A stretch of 47,451 nucleotides of DNA. Origin: Thermoguttaceae bacterium. GTDB lineage: Bacteria > Planctomycetota > Planctomycetia > Pirellulales > Thermoguttaceae. The position numbers and the translations under genes are program-made. Positions 5,790-47,451 of this stretch are shown here, one piece after another. The notes beneath the pieces were generated by a model that saw only the letters and a list, made by a program, of their open reading frames with translations, searched no databases and was not told the DNA's origin. The stretch spans positions 1-47,451 of the forward strand of contig JBEKZQ010000667.1 in NCBI GenBank assembly GCA_049509675.1, written 5' to 3'. The number at the start of each line of letters is the position of its first letter. Position 1 is the first letter of the stretch.

Positions 5790-7568
5790 ATGCCCACCGC
5801 CACGCGCAAACGAGCCGCCGCGAAAAAACCGGAGACGATCGAGGCCCGCGTGCGCGCCTACATTGCCGGCGTCAGCTCCGGCGAGATCGTGGCCTGCAAG
5901 TGGGTCAAGCTGGCCGTCGCGCGCCACGTCCGCGATCTGAAGCACAGTGCGAAGCGGGGCCTCCACTTCGACGCCGACGCCGCGCGGCTGGCGGTGCAGT
6001 TCGTCGAATGCCTGCCGCACTCGAAGGGCAAATGGGCCGGCAAGCCCTTGCGCCTCGAGGGCTGGCAGATTTTCATCGTGTGGTGCGTCTACGGCTGGAT
6101 GCGCAGCGACGGCCGCCGCCGCTTCAACACGGTGCTAATCGTCGTCGCGCGCAAAAACGGCAAGTCGACGCTCTGCGCCGGCCTGGCCCTGAAGGCCCTG
6201 GTCTGCGACGGAGAGGCCGGCGCCGAGGTCTACTCCGCCGCCACCAAGCGCGACCAGGCCAAGATCGTCTGGTCCGAGGCCCGCAAGATGGTGCTGAAAA
6301 GCCCGTCGCTGAAAAAAATCATCGGCGTGTCGCGCGGGGCGCTGGCCGTCGAATCGACGCAGTCCACCTATCAGCCCCTGGGGCGCGACGCCGACACGCT
6401 CGACGGCCTGAACCCGTCCTGCGCCGTGATCGACGAGGTCCATGCCCACAAGGACCGGGCCGTCTGGGACGTGATCGAGTCGGGCACCGGCGCGCGGGAA
6501 AATCCGCTCTTGATCGGCATCACCACGGCCGGCGACGGTTCGCCCGAGTCGATCTATGCCGAGCTCAAAAAACGCACCGAGGACGTGCTCACCGGCGCGG
6601 TGGAAGACGACACCTGGTTCGGCATGATCTTTACGCTCGACGAGGGCGACTCGTGGCAGGATGAACGTGTTTGGCTCAAGGCCAATCCGAATCTGGGCGT
6701 ATCGGTCAACATCGAGGACCTCCGCCGGCTCTGCCAGAAGGCCAAAGAATCGCCGGCCAGCGTGGCGAATTTCCGCCGCAAGCGCTGCAACGAAGACGTG
6801 GCCACCTCCAGCCCCTGGCTGTCCGTCGAAGAGGGCAGCGCGTGGCAGGCCTGTGCCGGCGGCGATTTTTACGATGGGCACGGCCTGCGGCCCGAGACGA
6901 TCGAGCGCTTCCGCGGCCGGAAATGCTGGGTGGGCGCGGACCTCTCCAGCCTCTCCGACCTGACGGCCATGGCCTTTTGCTTTCCTTGTGAGGACGGCTC
7001 GGCGGATCTTCTCGCCTTCGCCTGGTGTCCGCGGCAAAACGCCGTCGGACGGACCCGCGACAACCGCGTCCCCTACATTACCTGGGCCGACATGGGCCTG
7101 CTGAAGCTGACCGATGGGGACAGCGTAAATTACGACGAGCTCCGCGATACGCTCCGCACGGCCCGCGACGCCTGGGGTTGGGAGATCCAGCGCATCGCCT
7201 TCGACCCCAACAATGCCCGCTATCTCCTCACCAAGCTGGCCGAGGAGGACGGTTTTTCCGCCGAGCAACTGGTCGAGCACGACCAGCGCTGCGGCGCGAT
7301 GAACGAGCCGATCCTGGCCACCGAGAAGCTGATCCTCGACCGCAAGCTCCGCCACGGCGGCCACCGCGCCTTGCGTTGGTGCGTGGCCAACGCGGTGATT
7401 TATACCGATACGGGCGGCCGCCGCCGCTTCAACAAGCGGCGGAGCCGCGAAAAGATCGACCTGGCCGTGGCCGCGGTGATGGCCGTGGGCTGCGCCGCCT
7501 CGGGCGCCGGTGCGGAACCCGCCGGCGCAAGCATCTACGACAACCTGGATCACATCATCATGGTCTAG
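5790..7568 (+). CDS. terL: Terminase large subunit
   Basis: Walker A-like VVARKNGKST and Walker B AVIDEVHAH. 592 aa, positioned between TerS and portal. Confidence 0.9.
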   Translation: MPTATRKRAAAKKPETIEARVRAYIAGVSSGEIVACKWVKLAVARHVRDLKHSAKRGLHFDADAARLAVQFVECLPHSKGKWAGKPLRLEGWQIFIVWCVYGWMRSDGRRRFNTVLIVVARKNGKSTLCAGLALKALVCDGEAGAEVYSAATKRDQAKIVWSEARKMVLKSPSLKKIIGVSRGALAVESTQSTYQPLGRDADTLDGLNPSCAVIDEVHAHKDRAVWDVIESGTGARENPLLIGITTAGDGSPESIYAELKKRTEDVLTGAVEDDTWFGMIFTLDEGDSWQDERVWLKANPNLGVSVNIEDLRRLCQKAKESPASVANFRRKRCNEDVATSSPWLSVEEGSAWQACAGGDFYDGHGLRPETIERFRGRKCWVGADLSSLSDLTAMAFCFPCEDGSADLLAFAWCPRQNAVGRTRDNRVPYITWADMGLLKLTDGDSVNYDELRDTLRTARDAWGWEIQRIAFDPNNARYLLTKLAEEDGFSAEQLVEHDQRCGAMNEPILATEKLILDRKLRHGGHRALRWCVANAVIYTDTGGRRRFNKRRSREKIDLAVAAVMAVGCAASGAGAEPAGASIYDNLDHIIMV

Positions 7569-7659
7569 TGTTCAGTGTTCAGTTTTCAGTGTTCAGTACG
7601 CTGACGCGGAAAACGACGGTCCATTCGCATGCGAACTGAAAACTGAAAACTGAATACTG
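7568..7659. repeat. Inverted tandem-repeat hairpin, TTTTCAG/CTGAAAA family
   Basis: Left arm gtgttcagtgttcagttttcagtgttcag (7568-7596). Right arm ctgaaaactgaaaactgaatactg (7636-7659). Followed by the small hairpin gcgggctttagcccgc. Confidence 0.9.
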
Positions 7660-7694: not shown

Positions 7695-9977
<2,283 letters not shown>

Positions 9978-11055: not shown

Positions 11056-11319
11056 ATGGGAAAAGGTAGCCGCCGCCGGCCCTGCCTGGTCAGCCGCGAA
11101 CAGTTCGAACGCAACTGGGAACGGGCCTTCGGCAGGAAGGAAAAGCAGCCACGGATGAAACACGGAACGAACACGGAAGGGAATCACGAAAGCACGAAAA
11201 CGCGAAACGCCCCCGCCCCAAAGGGGCCTGACTCGATAGCCCAGGGCAACGCCCTGGGTGCGCAGAGCCATAAAACCTCAGCCCCGCAGGGGCGCAACAA
11301 ACGGAAACCGATGCCATGA
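11056..11319 (+). CDS. Small hypothetical protein; only the first ~30 codons look protein-like, the rest reads through repeat elements
   Basis: MGKGSRRRPCLVSREQFERNWERAFG, followed by translation of the CACGRAW array and hairpins at 11149-11300. Confidence 0.3.
   Translation: MGKGSRRRPCLVSREQFERNWERAFGRKEKQPRMKHGTNTEGNHESTKTRNAPAPKGPDSIAQGNALGAQSHKTSAPQGRNKRKPMP
11216..11300 (+). ncRNA. Conserved three-hairpin leader element, copy 1 (upstream of the protease gene)
   Basis: ccccaaagggg / ctcgatagcccagggcaacgccctggg / gccccgcaggggcgcaacaa. A paralogous ~87-nt copy lies at 15934-16020 with conserved stems and different loops. Confidence 0.4.
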
Positions 11320-12851: not shown

Positions 12852-12861
12852 AGGCCGTGGG

Positions 12862-13047
12862 GCCGCGTAGCGGCCATTGACGGTAGCCGTGGGTTTCAAC
12901 CCACGGTCCAAAAACCGGCCGATTTGTTCCGTCGCGCAGCGACGGCTGAATGACCGACGCCACCCCCGCGCCGAAACGGCGTCGCGCAGCGACGCCTGAT
13001 CCGTGGGTTGAAACCCACGGCTACCATCGGGCCATCGCTACGCGATT
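12862..13047. repeat. Composite REP/MITE-like element (inverted unit A' - small hairpins - unit A)
   Basis: 12862-12906 is the inverted variant of 13001-13047. Internal hairpins ccgtcgcgcagcgacgg and ggcgtcgcgcagcgacgcc. Same architecture at 41273-41462 and 42805-43022. Confidence 0.85.
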
Positions 13048-18672: not shown

Positions 18673-18682
18673 CGAAAAAAAA

Positions 18683-18768
18683 GGGATTAGGGATTAGCGA
18701 TTAGGGATTAGAGCCGCAGCGCGGCCGCGATTCCTTCTCCTAATCCCTAATCCCCACTCTCTAATCCC
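18683..18768. terminator. Inverted tandem-repeat hairpin, GGGATTA/TAATCCC family, directly after the capsid gene (possible attenuator/terminator; no U-tract)
   Basis: Left arm gggattagggattagcgattagggattag (18683-18711). Right arm ctcctaatccctaatccccactctctaatccc (18737-18768). Confidence 0.5.
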
Positions 18769-18784
18769 TGTCCGCGAGGAGCCC

Positions 18785-19728: not shown

Positions 19729-19791
19729 GCGTGGACCGTGGGGCGTGGGGCGTGGACCGATCGCCCCGCGGCCCACGCCCCACGGCCCACG
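19729..19791. repeat. Inverted tandem-repeat hairpin, GTGGGGC/GCCCCAC family
   Basis: gcgtggaccgtggggcgtggggcgtgg / cgccccgcggcccacgccccacggcccacg. Confidence 0.9.
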
Positions 19792-20150: not shown

Positions 20151-20223
20151 GGGATTAGGGATTAGGGATTAGTCGCAGGCGAGATTCCCCCCTCTAATCC
20201 CCAATCCCCAATCCCTAATTCCC
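20151..20223. repeat. Inverted tandem-repeat hairpin, GGGATTA/TAATCCC family
   Basis: gggattagggattagggattag / ctctaatccccaatccccaatccctaattccc, ending 6 nt before the ATG at 20230. Confidence 0.9.
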
Positions 20224-22370: not shown

Positions 22371-22455
22371 AATATCAAAGTGGGTTCCCGGATTTGGGGG
22401 CCGCGGGCGCAATCCCAACGCCCCCGGATCCGTTTTACCCATAGAAGCAGTTTGA

Positions 22456-22527
22456 AGTTTTCAGTTTTCAGTGTTCAGCAAGACTGGGCATCGGAAGCTG
22501 AAAACTGAAAACTGAAAACTGAAAACT
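22456..22527. repeat. Inverted tandem-repeat hairpin, TTTTCAG/CTGAAAA family
   Basis: agttttcagttttcagtgttcag / ctgaaaactgaaaactgaaaactgaaaact. The left flank agcagtttgaag is shared with the copy at 36470. Confidence 0.9.
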
Positions 22528-22943: not shown

Positions 22944-23230
22944 CGCTGCGCATGGCGGCGCGGGCCGGAATTTTGGACGTCGACCGCTGGCTGGAAACGA
23001 TCGCGCCGGAGCGGCTCGACGAATGGGAAATTTTCCAGCGGATCGAGCCGGACCCGCTCGATCGGCTGCGGGAGGTGCTGAAGATGGGTTTCGCCCTGCT
23101 GGCCGCCGGCCTGGGCATATCGAAGGTAACGCCGGAGTTTTTCGATCCGGTGAAGCCGGAAGAGGCGGCCCCGGTCGGCGCCCGCGAAGCGGCCGGAATG
23201 CTGCGGAGGAGCGCGGGGCGTGAACCGTGA
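22916..23230 (+). CDS. -1 frame extension of the tail assembly chaperone (gpT-like part of a G-T fusion)
   Basis: No stop from 22916 in the -1 frame: LRKDARRRLALRMAARAGILDVDRWLETIAPERLDEW... Confidence 0.6.
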   Translation, partial: LRKDARRRLALRMAARAGILDVDRWLETIAPERLDEWEIFQRIEPDPLDRLREVLKMGFALLAAGLGISKVTPEFFDPVKPEEAAPVGAREAAGMLRRSAGREP

Positions 23231-23321
23231 AGCGTGGACCGTGGAGCGGGAAATCGTGGGTCGGGGGCCGTGGACCGTGAAGCGAACGATCGCCCCACGG
23301 TCCACGCCCCACGCCCCACGG
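23214..23321. repeat. Inverted tandem-repeat hairpin, GTGGGGC/GCCCCAC family, followed by a (TAATCCC)n arm at 23329-23360
   Basis: Long G-arm 23214-23285, C-arm 23291-23321. The TAATCCC array ends 3 nt before the ATG at 23364. Confidence 0.85.
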
Positions 23322-23363
23322 TTCTGATTCCTAATCCCTAATCCCTAATCGCTAATTCCTCCC

Positions 23364-28070: not shown

Positions 28071-28640
28071 GTGAATTTCGTGAATTTCGTGGATCCTCCT
28101 CCGATGGCCTTCCCGATTGAAAAGGCAGCGGCGTTCATCCTCGCCTACCCGGCCGGCATGGTCGCGGTCGAATTGATCGACTGGCTGCAAAAGAATCGCG
28201 TGGCGGCCATTGCGCTGGAGAACAACCGCACGAATCGGCACATCGTGGTGGGCTACAATCTGTGTGTCCGCCGCGCGCTGGACTCAGGCTTCGAACATTT
28301 CATCTTCGCCGATAACGACATGCGGCCCTCGCTGGCCGAGGCGGCCCCGTTCCTGGCGGCGGCCGGCGACATCGTGGCCTGCAAATACCCCACGGAATGC
28401 GGCGAGGCGGCCTGGCCGGAGCCCAGCGGCTTTCACACCGGTTTATGGCGCAGCACACGGCGCGTGCTGGAGGCGATCGAGCCGCCCTGGTTCCTGCCCA
28501 GCTTTTCCGAGGACGGCTGCCGCGTGCTGACCTGCGAGTGCGCGCTGTTGCCGCTGAAGGCGCAGCGGGCCGGATTCACGGTCCGACATGCCGGCTGGGC
28601 GGGGCACACGCCGCGGCAGAGCGTGGAGCGTGGGGCGTGA
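28071..28640 (+). CDS. GT-A-like glycosyltransferase (tentative)
   Basis: DxD-type motif in HFIFADNDMRP and size consistent with a small GT-A fold. GTG start at 28071 or ATG at 28104. Confidence 0.35.
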   Translation: MNFVNFVDPPPMAFPIEKAAAFILAYPAGMVAVELIDWLQKNRVAAIALENNRTNRHIVVGYNLCVRRALDSGFEHFIFADNDMRPSLAEAAPFLAAAGDIVACKYPTECGEAAWPEPSGFHTGLWRSTRRVLEAIEPPWFLPSFSEDGCRVLTCECALLPLKAQRAGFTVRHAGWAGHTPRQSVERGA

Positions 28641-28729
28641 AGCGTGGGGCGGAAGGCGTGGGGCGTGGGGCGTGATGCGTGGGGCGGAAGGCGTGGGGCG
28701 TGGAGCGCGATCACCCCACGCCCCACGGT
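28621..28729. terminator. Very long GTGGGGC-family array with a short complementary arm, between convergent genes (possible bidirectional terminator)
   Basis: About 12 heptamer units at 28621-28707, then caccccacgccccacgg (28712-28729). The + gene ends at 28640, the - gene ends at 28730. Confidence 0.5.
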
Positions 28730-28873
28730 TCACGGTCCCCGCACGCCGCAGGCCTTCAGCAGGGCGAAAAGGAGGAACAGTCCGACGATCGCGGCGGCCT
28801 GGGCCCAGCCCCGCCAGGTCGGCCGGCCCTCCTGGTCCTCGTCGTCCGGATTGTCGGGATCCAAGAGGCCCAT
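28730..28873 (-). CDS. Small tail-anchored membrane protein (47 aa), not in the ORF track
   Basis: My translation: MGLLDPDNPDDEDQEGRPTWRGWAQAAAIVGLFLLFALLKACGVRGP; acidic N-terminus then one hydrophobic helix. Confidence 0.4.
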   Translation of the reverse strand: MGLLDPDNPDDEDQEGRPTWRGWAQAAAIVGLFLLFALLKACGVRGP

Positions 28874-32045: not shown

Positions 32046-32246
32046 TTACGATTCAATCTTTTTCGGCCGGCCGCGCGGGCGGAGGGCCCGCCGCAGAATC
32101 TCGATTTCGCGGGGCGAAATCAGGTAGCGGCCGGCCACCAGCCGGCCGGCCCGGCCTGAGCGGCACTCCCGCCGCACCCAGGCCACCCCCGCGCCGATCG
32201 CGGCCGCCGCCTCCCCCACGCCCACCAGATTTTTTAGTTGATCCAT
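32046..32246 (-). CDS. xis: Excisionase-family helix-turn-helix DNA-binding protein
   Basis: LVGVGEAAAAIGAGVAWVRRECRSGR...GRYLISPREIEIL fits the excisionase/MerR-type HTH pattern. Adjacent to attP. Confidence 0.7.
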   Translation of the reverse strand: MDQLKNLVGVGEAAAAIGAGVAWVRRECRSGRAGRLVAGRYLISPREIEILRRALRPRGRPKKIES

Positions 32247-32252
32247 GCCCTA

Positions 32253-32280
32253 ATTATGGCGGGGCCGATTGTTTTGTCAA
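32253..32280 (-). promoter_or_regulatory. Candidate promoter giving a leaderless xis mRNA
   Basis: Minus strand TTGACA - 16 nt - CATAAT, with the ATG (32246) 6 nt after the -10. Confidence 0.5.
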
Positions 32281-32289
32281 GGGAAAAAA

Positions 32290-32367
32290 GGGATTAGGGA
32301 TTAGGGATTGGGGATTAGTGCCGATGCGCGGCCGCCTCTAATCCCTAATCTGCTAATCCCTAATCCC
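32290..32367. repeat. Inverted tandem-repeat hairpin, GGGATTA/TAATCCC family
   Basis: gggattagggattagggattggggattag / ctctaatccctaatctgctaatccctaatccc. Confidence 0.9.
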
Positions 32368-32491
32368 TCAACGCCGCCACCTGCGATTCTGGGGCCTCCG
32401 GCCGCCAAGGTCCAGGGATACCTATTTGCCGCTCCGCGCCCGCCAGGCGCAATCCTACGCGATCGCCGCCGTGGGGGATGGGGGATGGTGT

Positions 32492-32536
32492 GGCCTTTTA
32501 ATCCGTAGGTCTCGGGTTCGAGTCCCGACAGCCCCA
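32492..32536 (+). other. attP core: 3' part of a tRNA-Lys(UUU)-like gene (anticodon loop to discriminator)
   Basis: cttttaa (loop) tccgt aggtc tcggg ttcgagt cccga cagcccc a. The T-arm is canonical, but no matching 5' acceptor or D-arm lies upstream, so it is a fragment. Confidence 0.6.
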
Positions 32537-32602
32537 CTAACGACGGAAGGGCGGGGAAGTTTTCAGTTTTCAGTGCTCAGTTTTCAGCGCGGGGCGCCGC
32601 GC

Positions 32603-32630
32603 TTGACAGGGTTGCAAATTACGATAATAT
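32603..32630 (+). promoter_or_regulatory. Candidate promoter giving a leaderless mRNA for the XRE regulator, overlapping operator-like motif TTGCAAATTACGATAAT
   Basis: TTGACA (32603-32608) - 16 nt - TAATAT (32625-32630). ATG at 32637. Confidence 0.55.
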
Positions 32631-32636
32631 AGGAGC

Positions 32637-32900
32637 ATGGTCGCCGTGGTCACAGACAGAGACGCGATTCGGACGCTCGCGCGGAACATCCGTCGATTGA
32701 TGGAGGACCGCCGCGTTCCGCTGACCCAGCAGGCTCTCGCGAAGGCCGCTGGCATTCAGCAGTCGGCGGTTTCCCGAATTCTCAACGCCCATAACGATCC
32801 GTCAGTATGCGTAGTTCTCCGCATCGCGGATGCCCTGGGCGTGCCGATGGACATGCTCTTCCGGGAGCAGTCGGCGAGAATTTTGGAAAAGGTCTATTGA
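32637..32900 (+). CDS. XRE-family HTH transcriptional regulator (CI/Cro-like)
   Basis: LTQQALAKAAGIQQSAVSRILNAHNDPSVCVVLRIADALGVPMDMLF is a classic HTH_3 pattern. Confidence 0.8.
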   Translation: MVAVVTDRDAIRTLARNIRRLMEDRRVPLTQQALAKAAGIQQSAVSRILNAHNDPSVCVVLRIADALGVPMDMLFREQSARILEKVY

Positions 32901-32926
32901 CGACCGATTGCAAATTTAGATAATTA
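32897..32926 (+). promoter_or_regulatory. Second promoter/operator with the same motif (TTGCAAATTTAGATAAT), directed toward csrA
   Basis: TTGACG (32897-32902) - 16 nt - GATAAT (32919-32924). The 17-mer at 32908-32924 matches 32612-32628 at 15 of 17 positions. Confidence 0.45.
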
Positions 32927-33002
32927 GCCGTTATCGGGTCTGAGTGGGCCCGGTAGCGGCGTTCTTTTTGGTCGGGCGCGTGGCCCGGCCGACGCCAGAC
33001 GG

Positions 33003-33083
33003 AACAGGCGAACAAGGGAGCAGGTGAGCAGGCGACCGGAAGGTCTTTCACCTGTTCTCCTGCTCCACTTTCACCTGTTCTCT
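33003..33083. repeat. Inverted tandem-repeat hairpin, CAGGTGA family
   Basis: gaacaggcgaacaagggagcaggtgagcaggcg / tcacctgttctcctgctccactttcacctgttctc. Confidence 0.85.
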
Positions 33084-33234
33084 TGGCCGCTCGCGGCCAA
33101 GAAACGCAGCCGGCCGGCAGATTTCGATGCGGCCGCCGGCCAGGTGCGCCAAGAGAGAAGGGGCCAAGGAGGACAAGGCCACCCTCGTTGCGCGTCATAG
33201 TAAGACACGCGGGGCGGCCTGTCAAGAGGAGCAA

Positions 33235-33313
33235 GGGATTAGGGATTAGCAAATTAGGGATTGGGAGGAAGCCAGCGTCGGCACTAATCCCTAATCCCCA
33301 ATCCCTAATCCCT
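33235..33313 (+). repeat. 79-bp exact direct repeat, copy 1 (itself a GGGATTA-family hairpin)
   Basis: gggattagggattagcaaattagggattgggaggaagccagcgtcggcactaatccctaatccccaatccctaatccct, identical by my reading to 34113-34191. Confidence 0.9.
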
Positions 33314-33331
33314 CCAACCAAGGAGGAAACC

Positions 33332-33556
33332 ATGCTGGTACTCACGAGGAGACGAAACGAGGCGGTGCTGATGCGCGGGCCGCTGGGCGACCTGATCACG
33401 GTGCGCGTGCTGGACCTGGCCGACGGCCGAGTCCGGCTGGGGATCGACGCGGCCGACGACATCCAGATATGGAGGCCGGGGGCGAGGAACCAGAACAGGA
33501 GAGCAGTGGAGCAGGAGAGCAGGCGAGGGCCGGCCCTTGCCCTTGCCGAAAGCTGA
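33332..33556 (+). CDS. csrA: CsrA/RsmA-family RNA-binding regulator homologue
   Basis: MLVLTRRRNEAVLM..GDLITVRVLDLADGRVRLGIDAADDIQIWR parallels E. coli CsrA [50 protein letters not shown] lies 6 nt upstream of the ATG. Confidence 0.75.
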   Translation: MLVLTRRRNEAVLMRGPLGDLITVRVLDLADGRVRLGIDAADDIQIWRPGARNQNRRAVEQESRRGPALALAES

Positions 33557-33754
33557 AAACTGAAGACTTGCGGGGGCCACGGATGAAACACGGATCGAAC
33601 ACGGATTGACCGCCTGCGCGCGAAGACATCAGGGCAATAACGACTAACCTCTAACGGGAAAGGAGGAGCGGTCCGACGACAAGGGTGTGACCTGGTGTCT
33701 TCGTGCGCGTGCGGTTTCCCATTCGCGTGGTCCGCGGTCGAAAGGACCGATTAC

Positions 33755-34108
33755 ATGAAAGCGACCAACGAGACGGAAGTGCTCCGCGAATTCGAGCGCA
33801 AGCTGCTGCGGATCGTCGTGCTGCCGCCCGGCACTTACTCGGCCGAGTTCATCGCGGCCATCGCCGAGCGGCTGGTGGGCGCCGGCTGCGGGCTATTGCT
33901 GCGGGCCAGCCGCCACACGCGGCCGCCCCTGGACGAAGCGGACCAGCTCGGGCGCGTGGTTTTCGGCGCGGTCTGCGGCGTGCTGGGGCATTATCTCAAG
34001 GCCCATCCGGACGGCGCGCCCGAGCCGGCGGGACTGATCAGCATCAATCCATCGCCCCGCGCCCCAGGCCCCACGGATCAATGCGATCAGGGAGGGCCGG
34101 GGAAGTGA
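33755..34108 (+). CDS. Hypothetical protein (117 aa)
   Basis: ATG at 33755 (MKATNETEVLREFERKLLRIVVLPPG...). No motif recognised. Confidence 0.4.
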   Translation: MKATNETEVLREFERKLLRIVVLPPGTYSAEFIAAIAERLVGAGCGLLLRASRHTRPPLDEADQLGRVVFGAVCGVLGHYLKAHPDGAPEPAGLISINPSPRAPGPTDQCDQGGPGK

Positions 34109-34112
34109 ACAG

Positions 34113-34191
34113 GGGATTAGGGATTAGCAAATTAGGGATTGGGAGGAAGCCAGCGTCGGCACTAATCCCTAATCCCCAATCCCTAATCCCT
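34113..34191 (+). repeat. 79-bp exact direct repeat, copy 2
   Basis: Identical to 33235-33313. Together they bracket csrA and the 117-aa ORF. Confidence 0.9.
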
Positions 34192-35714: not shown

Positions 35715-35990
35715 GGGGGAAAGCGCGGGGCGGGGACCGTGGGGCGTGGGGCGTTTTCACGCGCCGCGCGCCACGCCTCGCGCCCCCCGATTCAGGCAGA
35801 ATTCGGCCACGGATGAAACACGGACGTCTTGCGGATGGTCTCCTTTCCGCGGGGCAATGCCAGCCGTGTCCGTCCGTGGCCCTTTCGTGGGGCGTGGGGC
35901 GAAAGCGCGCGGGGCGGGGACCGTGGGGCGTGGAGCGTTTTCACGGTCCACGCATGACGCCCCACGCTCCACGATTTTTCCCGCCGAACC
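35715..35990. repeat. Non-coding cluster of GTGGGGC-family arrays, a CACGGATGAAACACGGA unit and a ~45-bp internal direct repeat
   Basis: gaaagcgcggggcggggaccgtggggcgtgg(g/a)gcgttttcacg occurs at about 35715 and about 35895. ccacggatgaaacacgga also occurs at 11149 and 33578. Confidence 0.8.
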
Positions 35991-36120: not shown

Positions 36121-36468
36121 GTGAAGGCACAACTTAGGGTCCGGGCGAACCTGATGGTGGAATTGGAGGCCGATCAGCAGAAGGACCTGTTCCGGCTGCT
36201 GGCCAGCGCGCAGGAGGTCTTCGGCGAAGTGCGGTGCGGAAAATGCAAATCCAGCGAGCTAATCTTTCGCGCGCGGAAGAATTCGCAAGGCAACGAGTTT
36301 TTTGAGCTGGTCTGTTCGCGCTGCCGGGCCGTGCTGCAACTGGGCGTGCATAAGGAGGGCGGGACCCTCTTTCCCCGCCGCCACGCGGACAAGGAAGGCG
36401 GCGAAAAGGAGTGGCTGCCCGATAACGGCTGGATGCGCTGGGACGCGGAAACGGAAAGGATGGTCTGA
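36121..36468 (+). CDS. Zinc-ribbon protein of unknown function
   Basis: Two CxxC pairs (CGKCKS ... CSRCRA). GTG at 36121 or ATG at 36154. Confidence 0.45.
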   Translation: MKAQLRVRANLMVELEADQQKDLFRLLASAQEVFGEVRCGKCKSSELIFRARKNSQGNEFFELVCSRCRAVLQLGVHKEGGTLFPRRHADKEGGEKEWLPDNGWMRWDAETERMV

Positions 36469-36552: not shown

Positions 36553-36643
36553 ATGCAATAGCGGCGTCGGCCGTCGCGAGGGCTGCGGGACATAGGCCGG
36601 GCCGGAGCGGGCCGGCGCCGCGTGGCGGCAGAAGAGGGAAGTT

Positions 36644-36676
36644 AGGAGTCAGGAGTCAGGAGCCAGGGAGCAAGGA
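36644..36676 (+). promoter_or_regulatory. Tandem AGGAG/GGA heptamer array in the leader of the replication-initiator gene (candidate CsrA-binding / multi-SD leader)
   Basis: AGGAGTC AGGAGTC AGGAGCC AGGGAGC AAGGAAC, ending 7 nt before the ATG at 36684. Confidence 0.45.
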
Positions 36677-36683
36677 ACGCATC

Positions 36684-38018
36684 ATGGCGAAGAAACAAAT
36701 CGACCCGGGCCCACTGGAACACATCTGGCGGGGCTCGGAGGCCGACGAGGCGGCGGTCAGGCGTTACGCCGCCATCAAATTCTGCGAGCGCGTGGAAGTG
36801 CTCAATCGCCTGCTGCTGACCACCGAGGCGCGAAAGGCCCACCTCTCGGTGCTGCTGTGGCTGCACGCGGCGGACGCCATGTCGGTGCCGGTGGAGGTCG
36901 ACGCGGCCGCCATCGGCGACTCGGCCTCGGTCCGCCTGGGGCAGCGTGCGGTCCAGAGCGCGATCAAGTTCTGGGCCGACCTCGGCATCTTGATTTTGGA
37001 GCCGCGGTACGATAGGAATGGGAGACGCCTGCCTCGCTGCGCACGACTGGTCTGGGAGGCCGTTCTCGCAGTCGCGGGTCAAGCTGGCGCGGCCGTGCAT
37101 CAGCTTCCCAGCGCGGGGCAGATGGTAGCCGAGGACGAGGGCCGGCCGGCCGTGGCCGGCCCTCGTCATTTGGCCGGTCAAAGCGGGCGCGACTCGGCCC
37201 GCGCGGACCAGTATAACGGGCCGTTTGGGGCCGCCGAAGAGCAGTCGTTTTCGATGCCACCCGAAGGTGGAGACCTTGGCGCACAGCCGCCGGACCCTGG
37301 CGCACAAAATTTACCCGAACGAGGGGACATTGGCGCACCTGTGCGCCACCCTGGCGCACACGTGCGCCAGCCTGGCGCACCCACGTGCAACCTTTCCATC
37401 CGCAAGGGGGATACTGGCGCACAAAACGACCTGCTCCACGTGGCGCATGCCTGGAGATCGTGGACGCGCGTGCGCGCGGCCGCGCACGGTCTTCAGTCTG
37501 AAGAGTCTGAAGACGTCGTCGTCGACAGAGATCAGATCCGGAGAGCCCGGCGCACAGAAGTGCGGAATCTGGCCGCCGAGGCGGCCACAATCGTCCACAT
37601 GCGGCTCACCGATCCGCAGGTCCACCGCACGCTCACCGCCGATGCCCTCGCGGCCTTGCTGCTCTTCGATCGCGCGTGGCTGATCGAGTCGGCGCGAAAG
37701 GTCGGCGCGCAGATGCGCGGGGGCGACGTGCGGAAGCCTTTGGGCCTGTTGCAGGCCGTGCTGATGGAGGCCACCTGCGAGCGCGGCGGCATGGAGGCGA
37801 TCGCCGGCAGGGCCGAGTGGAAGAGCGCTTTCGCGCAGGTGATGACGCCGCTGGAACTGCACGCCGAGCGGCACTATCCGCCGCCGGCCTCTCCAGCGCC
37901 GCCATCTCCGCCGCCGGCCGAGCGGCCGGACACGCCGGAGGAAATCGCGGAGCTCAAGCGGGCGATCAAAGAACAGCGCGACCACCTGCGGCGGACCGCC
38001 GCGGCCAGGCCGCCGTAG
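36684..38018 (+). CDS. Putative replication initiator (lambda O-like organisation: iterons inside the gene)
   Basis: N-terminal winged-helix-like region. Central low-complexity segment encoded by the iteron cluster at 37277-37422. No helicase/primase motifs. Confidence 0.45.
   Translation: MAKKQIDPGPLEHIWRGSEADEAAVRRYAAIKFCERVEVLNRLLLTTEARKAHLSVLLWLHAADAMSVPVEVDAAAIGDSASVRLGQRAVQSAIKFWADLGILILEPRYDRNGRRLPRCARLVWEAVLAVAGQAGAAVHQLPSAGQMVAEDEGRPAVAGPRHLAGQSGRDSARADQYNGPFGAAEEQSFSMPPEGGDLGAQPPDPGAQNLPERGDIGAPVRHPGAHVRQPGAPTCNLSIRKGDTGAQNDLLHVAHAWRSWTRVRAAAHGLQSEESEDVVVDRDQIRRARRTEVRNLAAEAATIVHMRLTDPQVHRTLTADALAALLLFDRAWLIESARKVGAQMRGGDVRKPLGLLQAVLMEATCERGGMEAIAGRAEWKSAFAQVMTPLELHAERHYPPPASPAPPSPPPAERPDTPEEIAELKRAIKEQRDHLRRTAAARPP
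37277..37422. promoter_or_regulatory. Iteron cluster / candidate origin: 8 copies of TGGCGCAC (6 direct, 2 inverted)
   Basis: Direct copies start at 37277, 37298, 37331, 37352, 37373, 37415 (spacings 21, 33, 21, 21, 42 nt). Inverted GTGCGCCA at 37341 and 37362 create 18-bp palindromes. Confidence 0.6.
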
Positions 38019-38182
38019 CTAAGCAAGGTCGACGCAGGCCGGCGGGCTCGTAGCTCCGCCGGCCGACGCCCCGCGGATCGAAGCCGTCTCCGCGCCGCAT
38101 ACCCTGGCGGCGCGGGGACGGGGGGCGGGGCGGGGACAGAGCAGGTGATTTTTGAGCAGGTGAACAGGTGAAACGCAATGGG

Positions 38183-38227
38183 GCCGCGTAGCGGCCGTTG
38201 ATGATAGCCGTGGGTTTCAACCCACGG
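38183..38227 (-). repeat. REP/MITE-like unit A' (solo inverted copy)
   Basis: gccgcgtagcggccgttgatgatagccgtgggtttcaacccacgg. Confidence 0.85.
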
Positions 38228-38249
38228 ACAATGAAGGAGGCCAAAAGTC

Positions 38250-41055: not shown

Positions 41056-41291
41056 CCATCCACCAGGAAGCTGCGCTGCGCTGGCTGCTCTCGCCATGCA
41101 GGGAGCATGGCGGCACCGTCGGCCGGCGGCTGGCGCGCTACATGCCACATCACGCGACGACTGAGGGAGCGATGAATTTTCGCGAGGCATGGGAGGCGCT
41201 CATGGCGCTGGCCGAGGAGCACCGCGAGGAAATCCTTTTCGGCCGGGAGTTCGCCGTAGGCCAGGCGGTCTGGCCGCGTAGCGGCCGTTGA
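41049..41291 (+). CDS. Hypothetical protein (80 aa)
   Basis: ATG overlaps the parB stop (ATGCTGA). The C-terminus runs into REP unit A'. Confidence 0.4.
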   Translation: MLTIHQEAALRWLLSPCREHGGTVGRRLARYMPHHATTEGAMNFREAWEALMALAEEHREEILFGREFAVGQAVWPRSGR

Positions 41292-41462
41292 TGGTAGCCG
41301 TGGGTTTGAATCCCACGGGCCGGGCGCGACGCGCCCCGGCGCCGCATTCCGTCGCGTCGCGACGGCCGGACATCAGGCGTCGCTACGCGACGCATCATCG
41401 CGCGCGGCGCGTCCACCGTGGGTTGAAGCCCACGGCTACCGGCGGGCCATCGCTACGCGATT
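41273..41462. repeat. Composite REP/MITE-like element upstream of Int2
   Basis: A' 41273-41318, internal hairpins (ccgtcgcgtcgcgacgg, gcgtcgctacgcgacgc), A 41416-41462. Followed by the 10-bp-stem hairpin gagaaccggattgatagtccggttctc. Confidence 0.85.
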
Positions 41463-41567
41463 TCGGGCCGAAAGCGGGCCTGCCGAGAACCGGATTGATA
41501 GTCCGGTTCTCAGCGGGGCCTTTTCCAGCGCATAATTCCCTGGGGCTCTATCACGGGGAAAATCATC

Positions 41568-42797: not shown

Positions 42798-42804
42798 CGC
42801 ATTG

Positions 42805-43022
42805 GCCGCGTAGCGGCCGCTGATGGTAGCCGTGGGTTTCAACCCACGGAACGGGCGCATCCCATGCCGCATTCCGGCCGCGTAGCGACGATTGACGGTC
42901 AGGCGTCGCTACGCGACGCATCATCGCACGCGGGCTGGAGACCGTGGGTTGAAACCCACGGCTACCATCGGGCCATCGCTACGCGATTCCGGGGCCGACC
43001 ATCGGGCAATCGCTACGCGATT
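42805..43022. repeat. Composite REP/MITE-like element downstream of Int2
   Basis: A' 42805-42849, internal gcgtcgctacgcgacgc hairpin, A 42942-42988, plus a partial third unit 42997-43022. Confidence 0.85.
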
Positions 43023-44076: not shown

Positions 44077-44289
44077 GGCCGCCTCCGGGGCTGAAAAGAG
44101 GCCGGCCCGGAAAACCCGCCAAGGACCGGGCCGGCGTCGCGCTCGAAACCCTCAAGAAATGAATCGGGCCGCAGAGCGTGACCACTGCGGCCCGGTTGAA
44201 ACGGTGGTGATGCTTTCGTTATCGGCTGCCGTGGGTTGTGCCCTGAAAAGCAGTTAGGGCGCGTGTTGAAAATTTGCAACGTCTGCGGT

Positions 44290-46162: not shown

Positions 46163-46534
<372 letters not shown>

Positions 46535-46650
46535 CGGCCTGAAGGGAAGATTCTCGCCCATCAACACGGCGATGATGGTAAAGGTCAGCGGCGGCGAGGT
46601 GAAGCTCGATCTTTGATCGCCCCACGGTCCGCGGTCCACGCCCCACGATA

Positions 46651-46811: not shown

Positions 46812-47450
46812 ATGAGCAACAGAGCAGGTGAGCAGGTGAAAGGCAGAAAAACAACCATTTTGGCGTTCCGATCTACTGGTCTCCTGTTCGCAATTCTCCT
46901 GTTCTGCGGCTCGGCCGCCGCCGGACCGCCGATCGAAGTGCCCGCCGAACTGCGGCACGCAAACTATCTCGACGCGGCCGGGCGCGGTTCCTGCGGTTTC
47001 GCCGCGGCCGAGGATCTTCTCGTCGCCGAAGGCCGGCCTGATGAGGCCGCCTACTGGCGCGCACACTTCGCCGGGCCGACGTGGATCCGAGACCTGCCCC
47101 GCAAGGCGCAGCTCCGACACCTGGCGTGGGACGCGACGGAGTGCGGCGACGAGGCCTGGTTGCAGGCCGCGAGCGACTTGCACCTGGCGGCCGTGATCGG
47201 CTGGGGCACTTACCAGCAGCGACTATTGCGCGGCCTGGTCTGGATCCCCGGCCACGCCGTGCTATTTCTCGGTTTCGACGCCGACCATGCGTGGTATCTC
47301 GACAGCAACGGACCTGCCGGATACCGCATGCGACCCCGTGCGGAGTTCCTGCGGCTATGGCGGACGGCCGGCGGCGACGGATTTACCTTGATTCCAACCG
47401 ACCGTGGGTTGAAACCCACGGCTACCATCGGGCCATCGCTACGCGATTAG
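46812..47450 (+). CDS. Secreted/anchored papain-like cysteine peptidase (C39-like); endolysin candidate
   Basis: Hydrophobic N-terminus TTILAFRSTGLLFAILLFCGSAAAG. Candidate Cys in GRGSCGFAAAEDL and His in IPGHAVLFLGFD. The 3' end lies in the terminal repeat. Confidence 0.45.
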   Translation: MSNRAGEQVKGRKTTILAFRSTGLLFAILLFCGSAAAGPPIEVPAELRHANYLDAAGRGSCGFAAAEDLLVAEGRPDEAAYWRAHFAGPTWIRDLPRKAQLRHLAWDATECGDEAWLQAASDLHLAAVIGWGTYQQRLLRGLVWIPGHAVLFLGFDADHAWYLDSNGPAGYRMRPRAEFLRLWRTAGGDGFTLIPTDRGLKPTATIGPSLRD

Positions 47451-47451
47451 C
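47330..47451. repeat. Terminal direct repeat, copy 2
   Basis: Identical to 1-122. Confidence 0.95.

Follow-up and report, generated by a model that had tools for sequence, protein, structure and literature searches.

We analysed a 47,451-nucleotide stretch of DNA (the window), which is the complete genome of a temperate tailed phage. It carries terminase, portal, protease, capsid and ParB-like genes as well as an integrase-like gene, and a tRNA/tmRNA-like attP candidate lies at 32481-32539. Planctomycetota are the source of the CsrAs closest to the one encoded here and of one terminase (TerL) relative, and the phage host is most likely a planctomycete. We also tried a REP-like palindrome, TAGCCGTGGGTTTCAACCCACGG, as a host probe and rejected it, as it has more than 120 exact matches in many phyla. 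The genome is poor in Shine-Dalgarno (SD) sequences, with about 80 % of genes carrying none. An XRE-type helix-turn-helix (HTH) gene sits directly 5' of the csrA control region, and csrA is the first gene downstream of this regulator. In a syntenic phage locus, L079 (IMGVR_UViG_3300010379_001097), the gene order HTH-csrA-small ORF-SAM-like protein-Zn ribbon is kept, with a homologous HTH gene in the same place and a Zn-ribbon protein that is 78 % identical; our leader comparison covers two phages. The features of the window discussed below are as follows.

32603-32630, + strand: promoter-like site of the XRE-HTH gene, TTGACA-16-TAATAT, holding the operator-like 9-mer TTGCAAATT at 32612-32620
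32637-32900, + strand: XRE/Cro-CI-type HTH gene, 87 aa (Pfam HTH_3 43 bits, HTH_31 41 bits)
32897-32924, + strand: sigma70-like csrA promoter-like site, TTGACG-16-GATAAT, its -35 overlapping the HTH stop codon
32927-32970, + strand: 15-bp hairpin followed by a T-run, starting 3 nt after the -10 of the csrA promoter
33001-33083, + strand: GAACAGG/GAGCAGG-type repeat hairpin with its complement, a phage-wide repeat hairpin type absent from the L079 leader
33146-33196, + strand: conserved stem-loop closed by GCGC, with apical loop AAGGAGGACAA (site A) and CAAGGAGG at 33165-33172
33183-33193, + strand: conserved anti-SD-like block CCTCGTTGCGC, after the site A loop
33197-33225, - strand: antisense promoter-like site inside the leader, TTGACA-17-TACTAT, matching at 10/12 positions
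33229-33313, + strand: inserted GGGATTA/TAATCCC repeat hairpin of 85 nt that separates the conserved leader from the SD, with 3' foot CCUCC
33319-33329, + strand: SD CAAGGAGGAAA, also site B, with 2 nt between its end and the ATG; the identical 11-mer is found at the L079 csrA SD
33332-33556, + strand: csrA homologue, 74 aa, starting MLVLTRR
33487-33527, + strand: GAGCAGG-type repeat array within the end of csrA that codes for the tail, complementary to the C-rich arm 33049-33083
33578-33605, + strand: (A)CACGGAU repeated three times in tandem with a period of 11 nt, located 22 nt past the csrA stop and mostly predicted unpaired
36637-36678, + strand: array of GGA-bearing heptamers, in which GGA occurs 6 times within 40 nt and whose end is 5 nt from the ATG at 36684
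36684-38018, + strand: 444-aa ORFan with no homologue or family found

We compared the csrA product with profile and structure databases. The initial annotation had described a clear CsrA/RsmA-like protein and proposed PF02599 as the profile to check; residues 1-50 indeed match this Pfam family with a score of 48.4 bits, above its cutoff of 27 (E = 9e-13), and the protein also matches PHROG 9500, 'CsrA-like regulator' (E = 2e-8). HMMER returned 184 relatives, and each of the eight PDB sequence matches is a CsrA or carbon storage regulator. CsrA proteins fold into five strands and a C-terminal helix and form an intertwined homodimer. The AF2 monomer model (pLDDT 83.6) contains predicted strands at 11-15, 21-30 and 33-40 and a helix at 49-65 (helix pLDDT 60-69), and its best 13 Foldseek matches in the PDB are all CsrA/RsmA/RsmE, with TM of ~0.5-0.7. 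When aligned with the CsrA proteins of E. coli, P. aeruginosa and B. subtilis, L2, L4, R6, G37, A40 and R48 are invariant, and R7, I44 and I46 are kept or conservatively replaced. The beta1/beta5 RNA-binding positions of the E. coli protein (L2, L4, R6, R7, V40, V42 and R44) correspond to L2, L4, R6, R7, I44, I46 and R48.

The CsrA core occupies residues 1-50 and has a divergent ending, IQIWRPGAR, followed by a low-confidence tail of 24 aa that is encoded in part by the repeat array. Canonical HREEIY is replaced by WRPGAR, with E. coli E45, E46 and I47 becoming P, G and A, and the AP of the GxxAP motif is AA (GIDAA). This WRPGAR-type ending is common to a small planctomycete sub-family (P0007, P0008, P0012, P0026 and P0066), whose alignment was too loose for a metagenome scan. 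As sole query in a word-indexed search, the protein retrieved nothing but itself, the relatives having come from the profile search, and no CsrA more than ~63 % identical is present among 1.8 billion representatives. The protein falls below the NCBIfam equivalog cut-offs (NF002469 / TIGR00202; 44.2 bits against 73 and 39.3 against 70.1) and is a divergent paralogue rather than a canonical CsrA orthologue. The ORF encodes a bona fide, if divergent, CsrA-family protein with putative RNA-binding activity, and its assignment to the early/lysogeny control region of a phage is supported. No FliW partner and no CsrB/RsmZ-like sponge RNA were detected in the window.

In the leader analysis, promoter-like sites number 6 in 2.1 kb, against 0.5 expected. 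The one postulated ahead of the csrA leader is present and sigma70-like. Exact copies of TTGCAAATT occur in both + strand promoters; the csrA copy (32908-32916) lies 2 nt 5' of the -10, as it does at the HTH gene. Since the HTH ATG is 7 nt downstream of its -10, the HTH mRNA would be nearly leaderless. In L079, the csrA promoter-like site reads TTGACG-17-TATAAT and likewise overlaps the HTH stop. The adjoining hairpin and T-run have the makeup of an intrinsic terminator for upstream transcripts, and in the L079 counterpart the basal GCCGTT/AACGGC is conserved and the apical stem is fully compensated. A terminator 3 nt past the -10 may just as well point to a spurious promoter call, yet the arrangement is kept in L079.

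The two leaders share, at matched distances, the promoter, the 5' hairpin with T-run, the GGA-loop stem-loop, the anti-SD-like block and the SD. In the sequence comparison they have five collinear blocks with matched offsets in common, plus the 11-mer SD. These blocks are short, and the best local alignment scores 29, barely above the maximum of 28 in shuffles. In both phages a GGA occupies the predicted apical loop of the upstream stem-loop: the GGA of site A, at 33168, has a predicted P(unpaired) of 0.81, and the L079 loop, AGCCAGG|A, tops a predicted hairpin of -20.5 kcal/mol (z = -3.4). The csrA SD is the third-strongest among 42 gene starts, and its GGA is indistinguishable from a plain ribosome-binding site. 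CAAGGAGG occurs twice in the csrA leader (33165-33172 and, at the SD, 33319-33326), the same pair is found in L079, and the conserved block CCTCGTTG(C) is complementary to both copies with one mismatch. In L079, this anti-SD arm is predicted to pair with site A (-22.5 kcal/mol) and, when site A is blocked, to shift to the SD (-14.4 kcal/mol, p = 0.002). In the window, arm:SD pairing is no better than chance against shuffles (-10.3 kcal/mol, p = 0.15), and the SD is predicted to pair instead with CCUCC, the 3' foot of the GGGATTA repeat hairpin. In linear sequence, 154 nt separate sites A and B. E. coli CsrA bridges sites 10-63 nt apart, a range that the spacing here would exceed unless intervening hairpins draw the sites together.

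Of the Csr-type leader that had been proposed, a kind known from glgC, hcnA and csrA, what stands is one GGA over the SD and another upstream, both kept in L079, and the two-phage comparison offers new comparative support for two-site autoregulation. Relatives of the Zn-ribbon protein in metagenomes are mostly low in GC and have no csrA in the flanks covered, so they provided no further leaders to compare. Four other assemblies carry an identical CsrA leader, the single differing base being in the ORF; they were tried for covariation and, with identical leaders, were of no use. Rfam gave no match at the gathering threshold across the whole window and, at E <= 1 in 32200-33800, only meaningless miRNA-like matches to long hairpins.

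The csrA leader had also been characterized as packed with GGA. The motifs are all present and A(N)GGA shows a modest enrichment (13 against 5.0, p = 0.004), but GGA itself is not enriched: dinucleotide shuffles give 10.2 +/- 2.2 where 13 are observed (p = 0.15), and only 4-5 of the 13 are predicted single-stranded. A(N)GGA is as dense or denser in five other intergenic regions of the phage, 17 clusters with at least 5 GGA per 50 nt lie on the + strand, and the generic Csr/Rsm core CANGGANG shows no enrichment phage-wide (30 against 30.7 expected). Across 80 viral csrA leaders, A(N)GGA averages 2.4 per 100 nt against a background of 0.94, and 40 % of the leaders fall in the top decile, both figures being confounded by the SD itself.

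Of the GGA arrays that had been proposed, most are unrelated repeat hairpins. In the 47 kb, 79 Tandem Repeats Finder (TRF) rows have a period of 7, 8, 11 or 14, a density of 16.6 per 10 kb compared with less than 2 in a related prophage, and the heptamer arrays fall genome-wide into at least five unrelated sequence families, some without GGA. The GGGATTA hairpin 5' of csrA is 97.6 % identical to 34107-34191, 0.8 kb away, is absent from the L079 leader, and is a recent repeat insertion. The GGAs of its arms, which had been suggested as CsrA targets, have a predicted P(unpaired) of ~0; lying inside a ~30-bp stem, they are unlikely targets, and the GGGATTA hairpins are best read as repeat elements rather than CsrA sites. 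We also rejected the idea that GGGATTA arrays travel with CsrA, given no co-occurrence either way in viral contigs: none of 80 CsrA viral loci has such an array, and no CsrA gene was found in 432 kb around 49 arrays. A GGA-bearing csrA-tail array with an upstream complementary arm was likewise rejected as a general feature of phage csrA genes (7/80 loci against ~4.3 expected). Such an array with its arm is seen in the window and in two other loci, L083 and L050.

Plausible further candidate CsrA sites are few, namely the GGA-heptamer leader of the 444-aa ORFan and three (A)CACGGAU arrays. The five GGA heptamers said to end at a start codon (AGGAGTC, AGGAGTC, AGGAGCC, AGGGAGC and AAGGAAC, at 36644-36678) are present, the last one lying 5 nt 5' of the ATG. 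Their array is the only occurrence of its repeat unit, has no complementary arm and has weak predicted structure; the leader tops the 47 listed leaders for GGA (6 in 60 nt). The designation of the gene behind it as a replication initiator is unsupported, its product having no match in Pfam, PHROGs, NCBIfam, PDB, GenBank phages or IMG/VR. Searches of IMG/VR gave no close relatives of the ORFan, the ParB-like protein or a 472-aa protein, and searches of metagenomes none of the ParB-like protein. In the first (A)CACGGAU unit past csrA, CACGGAUGAA is the 10-mer of the hcnA site bound by RsmE, GGGCUUCACGGAUGAAGCCC (PMC13287468). The sister arrays, at 11150-11177 and 35808-35824, are short, as is the one behind csrA (2-3 units).

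Taken together, the chances are about even that this temperate phage, with its likely planctomycete host, places its divergent CsrA under Csr-type negative translational autoregulation. csrA would be transcribed from the sigma70-like promoter overlapping the stop codon of the HTH gene, and the 9-mer that this promoter shares with the HTH promoter may serve as a common operator. As the promoter lies just 5' of the terminator hairpin, transcripts from upstream would terminate at 32927-32970, while those from the embedded promoter would keep a truncated 5' stem-loop, detached from the T-run, and read into csrA. A CsrA dimer could then bind the loop GGA of the stem-loop at 33146-33196 together with the second GGA in the SD, and occlusion of the SD may be helped by the anti-SD-like block and, in the window, by the CCUCC foot of the inserted hairpin. 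The most likely form of control would be classical Csr-type repression by the protein of its own translation. In E. coli, CsrA is reported to repress translation of its own mRNA via GGA sites that include one over the SD (Yakhnin et al. 2011).

Three other explanations bear on parts of this model. The GGA heptamers before 36684 and the other GGA arrays may be by-products of genome-wide short tandem repetition, perhaps acting as tandem SD or ribosome stand-by sites where they abut a start codon, and unrelated to CsrA, a reading to which we give slightly less than an even chance. The repeat load relative to the related prophage, the diversity of unit families, several of them without GGA, the resemblance of AGGAG units to an SD, and the AGCAGGG AGCAGGG directly 5' of a start codon in L079 all fit it, as do the missing co-occurrence of GGGATTA arrays with CsrA and the lack of over-representation of csrA-tail arrays. 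The array at 36637-36678, however, has a unique unit and, unlike most arrays, no complementary arm, and its leader ranks first for GGA count. In addition, arrays also abound in four other viral loci with a CsrA gene, where units containing GGA lie close to csrA, so there may be a link through a common host lineage or function. Rather unlikely, in our estimate, is that csrA is a 'moron'-like accessory gene whose product acts mainly on host mRNAs or Csr partners, the phage GGAs being ordinary ribosome-binding sites. It would agree with the nearest relatives being chromosomal planctomycete CsrA paralogues, with csrA being accessory (the low-GC Zn-ribbon relatives have none in the flanks covered), with the isolation of the protein among the 1.8 billion representatives, with the phage-wide count of CANGGANG, and with the precedents of Bci (PMC7546807) and RsmQ (PMC9928087), for which effects on host traits such as motility, biofilm or metabolism have been reported. 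Yet csrA lies in an early operon rather than in a separate lysogenic-conversion cassette, its promoter shares an operator-like motif with the HTH gene, and the two-GGA leader architecture is conserved in L079; a host-directed role is also compatible with autoregulation.

It seems improbable that the ~430-nt 'leader' is an assembly of independent elements (an HTH terminator, an antisense or small RNA and repeat hairpins), with csrA transcribed by read-through or driven by an unrecognised promoter. The strong terminator beginning 3 nt past the proposed -10, the - strand promoter-like site at 33225-33197 and the two leader hairpins that are repeat insertions absent in L079 speak for such an assembly; against it, the promoter/terminator overlap is kept in L079 with compensatory stem changes, the collinear conserved blocks extend to the SD, and no Rfam family matches. 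Of similarly low probability is an extension of the autoregulatory model to a private post-transcriptional circuit, in which the WRPGAR-type CsrA would autoregulate via a loop-GGA/anti-SD/SD switch and time a few early genes via purpose-built tandem GGA 'landing pads'; candidates for such pads would be the AGGAGTC array ahead of the 444-aa ORFan as well as the (A)CACGGAU arrays at 11150, 33578 and 35808. Its premise is that GGA/SD-like leaders are rare signals where ~80 % of genes lack an SD, in host and phage alike. If it were true, part of the heptamer-repeat load would be a substrate for recruiting sites for RNA-binding proteins.

Homologues of CsrA on mobile elements can seize host post-transcriptional control, as with plasmid RsmQ and prophage Bci. 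The present case defines no new category, as phage-encoded CsrA genes are catalogued and common, but extends phage CsrA to a little-studied, SD-poor lineage, probably Planctomycetota. The L079 comparison yields compact, testable RNA elements: a terminator-embedded promoter, a loop-GGA stem-loop, an anti-SD-like block and an SD.

CsrA homologues of phages, prophages and plasmids are already documented (PHROG 9500, Bci, RsmQ and 216 IMG/VR contigs). Our phage comparison set comprised PHROG 9500, Bci (P. aeruginosa prophage AUS531phi and phage phi297), Xanthomonas and Erwinia jumbo phages and a Bacillus phage; these too have a CsrA domain on a tailed phage, with tblastn identities of 33-50 %, and they are not closely related to it in sequence. 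To our knowledge, csrA genomic position and a conserved leader have not been described for the CsrAs of Bci, the jumbo phages or the Bacillus phage. Bci has 123 aa with a C-terminal extension, compared with 74 aa here, and the host phylum of these phages is a different one. The reported effects of Bci concern phage infectivity and, on the host side, quorum sensing, motility and biofilm (PMC7546807). RsmQ of pQBR103 is a mobile-element CsrA paralogue that can cross-talk with the host Csr/Rsm regulon (PMC9928087); it resides on a plasmid, and its RNA binding and proteome effects have been shown, whereas the phage CsrA is known here from its sequence. The leader also recalls SD/anti-SD/anti-anti-SD switches in that the L079 arm is predicted to move to the SD when the upstream copy is blocked, while in the window arm:SD pairing is at shuffle level and another CCUCC is the predicted partner of the SD. 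From CsrA/RsmA/RsmE the protein differs in WRPGAR for HREEIY, GIDAA for GxxAP, a 24-aa tail that is part repeat-encoded, and its location on a phage. With E. coli CsrA and P. protegens RsmE it shares a domain above the Pfam cut-off, a predicted fold that agrees in the monomer model, MLVLTRR at the N terminus, a GxxA motif and the essential Arg (E. coli R44, R48 here), and as in known Csr targets such as the autoregulated csrA of E. coli, its gene has a GGA at its own SD and an upstream GGA in a hairpin loop.

We identified the 74-aa product of csrA (33332-33556, + strand) as a CsrA-family protein, bearing out the assignment of the initial annotation: it clears the Pfam CsrA profile PF02599 (48.4 bits, cutoff 27) and also matches PHROG 9500, 'CsrA-like regulator'. 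Judged by its sequence, the protein is divergent. It falls under the NCBIfam equivalog cut-offs, and a word-indexed homologue search with it returned no match except itself. An exhaustive HMMER search found 184 relatives. With the self-match and one long multi-stretch match of low-complexity type set aside, the best single-domain ones are 45-63 % identical over ~50 residues. In an alignment with reference CsrA sequences, the protein retains the RNA-binding positions of E. coli CsrA, as L2, L4, R6, R7, I44, I46 and R48, and the 13 best PDB matches to the AlphaFold model (pLDDT 83.6) are all CsrA, RsmA or RsmE. After the key Arg the protein has WRPGAR, where HREEIY is usual. This R-P-x-A-[RQ] ending is common to a small CsrA sub-family, and a profile built from the sub-family has planctomycete CsrAs, e.g. 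from Fuerstiella and Planctomycetaceae, as its best named matches. Of the members whose neighbourhoods were inspected, the two closest lie in ordinary chromosomal surroundings, one of them downstream of an XRE-HTH gene. The csrA 3' end that codes the tail (33487-33527) is an array of GGA-bearing repeat units, and a C-rich arm complementary to it lies upstream of the gene (33049-33083). Such an array and arm, built from other units, also occur in the csrA of two other viral loci, L083 (4298-4333) and L050 (2423-2472), and over 80 loci the layout is not significant (7 vs ~4.3 expected).

The gene is carried by a complete tailed-phage genome with a G+C content of 66 %. Its ends share 122 identical nt (1-122 and 47330-47451), which suggests a circular assembly or a terminally redundant genome with a unique length of ~47.3 kb. 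Among its genes are one for a large terminase (PHROG 9, E = 1e-168), an integrase-like gene and genes for a portal, head protease, major head protein and ParB-like protein. A 134-nt inverted duplication (8800-8933 vs 46404-46537, 97.8 % identity) has copied a piece of the portal gene to near 46.4 kb. Four other metagenomes also yielded assemblies of this phage, and relatives of its terminase are known at 63-81 % identity, one on a contig of 2.7 Mb and one a named match from Pirellulales. Between divergent promoters at 32253-32280 (-) and 32603-32630 (+), the region 32481-32539 is similar to tRNA or tmRNA 3' ends (T-arm and acceptor; Rfam tmRNA E = 2e-7, under the family threshold). ARAGORN finds no full tRNA or tmRNA gene there, and the region is a candidate attachment site, probably the attP core.

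We compared the csrA leader with that of the IMG/VR locus L079, a distant relative with true synteny. Its genes run in the order XRE-HTH, csrA (canonical, 56 aa), small ORF, SAM-like recombinase-like protein, Zn ribbon, and the Zn-ribbon protein is 78 % identical to that of window 36121-36468. Both phages have a TTGACG -35 overlapping the HTH stop codon, then a -10, and 2-3 nt past it the start of a hairpin with a T-run (window 32897-32970; L079 1455-1530). The hairpin base GCCGTT/AACGGC is kept in L079, and its apical 7-9 bp are wholly different yet complementary. Five leader blocks are collinear, at matched distances from the promoter, including:

CAAGGAGG, 265 nt (window) and 258 nt (L079) from the promoter
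CCTCGTTGCGC, 283 nt (window) and 277 nt (L079) from the promoter

The SD 11-mer CAAGGAGGAAA is identical in both phages (window 33319-33329), and in both predicted folds a GCGC-closed stem-loop (window 33146-33196) presents an apical-loop GGA. One GGA in a loop and one in the SD make up the classical Csr layout, as used in E. coli csrA autoregulation; the phage csrA leader appears to share it, with limited comparative support. The conserved block CCTCGTTG is a near-complement of CAAGGAGG. In L079 it is predicted to pair with the upstream CAAGGAGG copy (-22.5 kcal/mol) and, with that copy blocked, to shift to the SD (-14.4 kcal/mol, p = 0.002). For the window sequence, the predicted pairing of CCTCGTTG with the SD does not beat chance; instead, the SD is predicted to pair with the CCUCC foot of the inserted hairpin. 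The usual SD among 80 viral csrA leaders is of the CAAGGAGG type, and multi-GGA leaders are in the minority.

The leader had been described as packed with GGA, which is only partly so: A(N)GGA is enriched (13 vs 5.0 expected, p = 0.004) and GGA as such is not (13 vs 10.2 +/- 2.2 expected, p = 0.15). A(N)GGA density is 3.0 per 100 nt vs a mean of 1.0 in the phage's other intergenic regions, five of which match or surpass the leader. By predicted base-pair probabilities, no more than 4-5 of the 13 GGAs are accessible (33038, 33168, 33228 and 33264/33267), and those in the GGGATTA arms are all fully paired. The whole window has 30 copies of the generic Csr/Rsm core CANGGANG (30.7 expected), and its + strand has 17 clusters of at least five GGA per 50 nt.

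The proposal that GGGATTA arms are CsrA targets is unsupported, since the hairpin just upstream of the csrA SD (33229-33313) is a direct copy of 34107-34191 (97.6 % identity) with no counterpart in the L079 leader, and viral contigs show no co-occurrence of GGGATTA arrays with CsrA genes (0 of 80 CsrA loci one way, no match the other). The Csr-type leader idea holds in part, with a firmer basis in the loop and SD sites conserved in L079, and fails for the GGGATTA arms. (GGGATTA)3 also turns up in 49 viral contigs besides this one, most of them GC-rich. The window is exceptionally rich in short tandem arrays, with periods of 7-8 and in some cases 11 (79 TRF rows, 16.6 per 10 kb); a related prophage and planctomycete chromosomal loci have <2 rows per 10 kb, and four other CsrA-bearing viral loci (L079, L069, L050 and L083) are array-rich with different units. 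There are at least five array families (GGGATTA, CAGTGTT/CAGTTTT, CGTGGGG, GARCAGG and CACGRA), and most arrays form hairpins and occupy intergenic gaps. Examples of this repeat load are:

1137-1167
7567-7659
18682-18769
19729-19791
20151-20223
22448-22527
23219-23360
28613-28743
32289-32368
35723-35973

Separately, a ~200-bp repeat element occurs in at least four copies, with 28-nt palindromes (GATGGTAGCCGTGGGTTTCAACCCACGG) in inverted orientation at its ends, and appears to be a MITE-like or structured element spread across phyla. The 23-nt palindrome core has >120 exact matches in genome assemblies of many phyla, including Acidobacteriota, Verrucomicrobiota, Planctomycetota and Ignavibacteria, often as inverted pairs 95-150 nt apart. 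The element's sites in the window are:

12852-13047
41263-41471
42803-42998
38179-38228
71-124 (= 47400-47449)

The hairpin at the csrA promoter would act as a terminator, stopping transcripts that arrive from the HTH gene. Transcripts from the embedded promoter would be without the stem base, keeping the 5' stem-loop apart from the T-run, and would therefore read on into csrA. In the window, the HTH and csrA promoters each have an exact TTGCAAATT 2 nt ahead of the GATAAT -10, probably a common operator of the XRE-HTH protein; its exact copies are:

32612-32620
32908-32916
44271-44279 (-)

The HTH ATG is 7 nt past the -10, making the predicted HTH mRNA almost leaderless. In the csrA leader, an antisense RNA may arise from a promoter-like site at 33197-33225 (-), TTGACA-17-TACTAT, matching at 10 of 12 positions. 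Read by eye, L079 may have a similarly placed TTGCAA-17-TAAATT overlapping its csrA SD.

The GGA heptamers reported before 36684-38018 as a candidate CsrA target are present (36644-36678), lack a complementary arm and include the only AGGAGTC array in the window. Their predicted structure is weak (z = -1.2), and with them this leader has more GGAs than any other among the 47 listed. Such a GGA-rich leader is unusual because the phage is SD-poor: only ~20 % of its starts have a recognisable SD, and many starts follow C/A-rich sequence or stand right behind a TAATCCC repeat arm. The strong SDs are concentrated in the early region (33332, 36121 and 38250), and that of csrA is the third strongest of 42 starts. 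The AGGAG heptamer units themselves resemble an SD, and L079 has AGCAGGG AGCAGGG immediately before a start codon. The 444-aa protein encoded behind the heptamers is an ORFan: Pfam, PHROGs, NCBIfam, PDB, GenBank phages and IMG/VR gave no match, which leaves its label of replication initiator unsupported.

A better match to the Csr/Rsm consensus, missed by the initial annotation and offered as a lead only, may be found in sense-strand (A)CACGGAU arrays of 11-nt period:

11150-11177
33578-33605, beginning 22 nt past the csrA stop and predicted to be mostly unpaired
35808-35824

The pattern has five matches against 0.03 expected, and the arrays have the 19-mer GCCACGGATGAAACACGGA in common. Each includes CACGGAUGAA, an exact 10-mer of hcnA RNA that is bound there by RsmE (PMC13287468). 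Sister arrays of the CACGRA family have CACGAA in place of CACGGA, so GGA is not a conserved feature of the array family.

Phage-borne CsrA is already known. Seventeen GenBank records of phages of Pseudomonas, Xanthomonas, Erwinia and Bacillus include CsrA-like genes, which mostly carry a CsrA-like or regulatory annotation, and two peptide patterns matched 216 IMG/VR contigs. The CsrA-like protein Bci of a P. aeruginosa prophage (PMC7546807) and the plasmid CsrA homologue RsmQ (PMC9928087) have been studied experimentally. To these, the window protein adds a divergent case.
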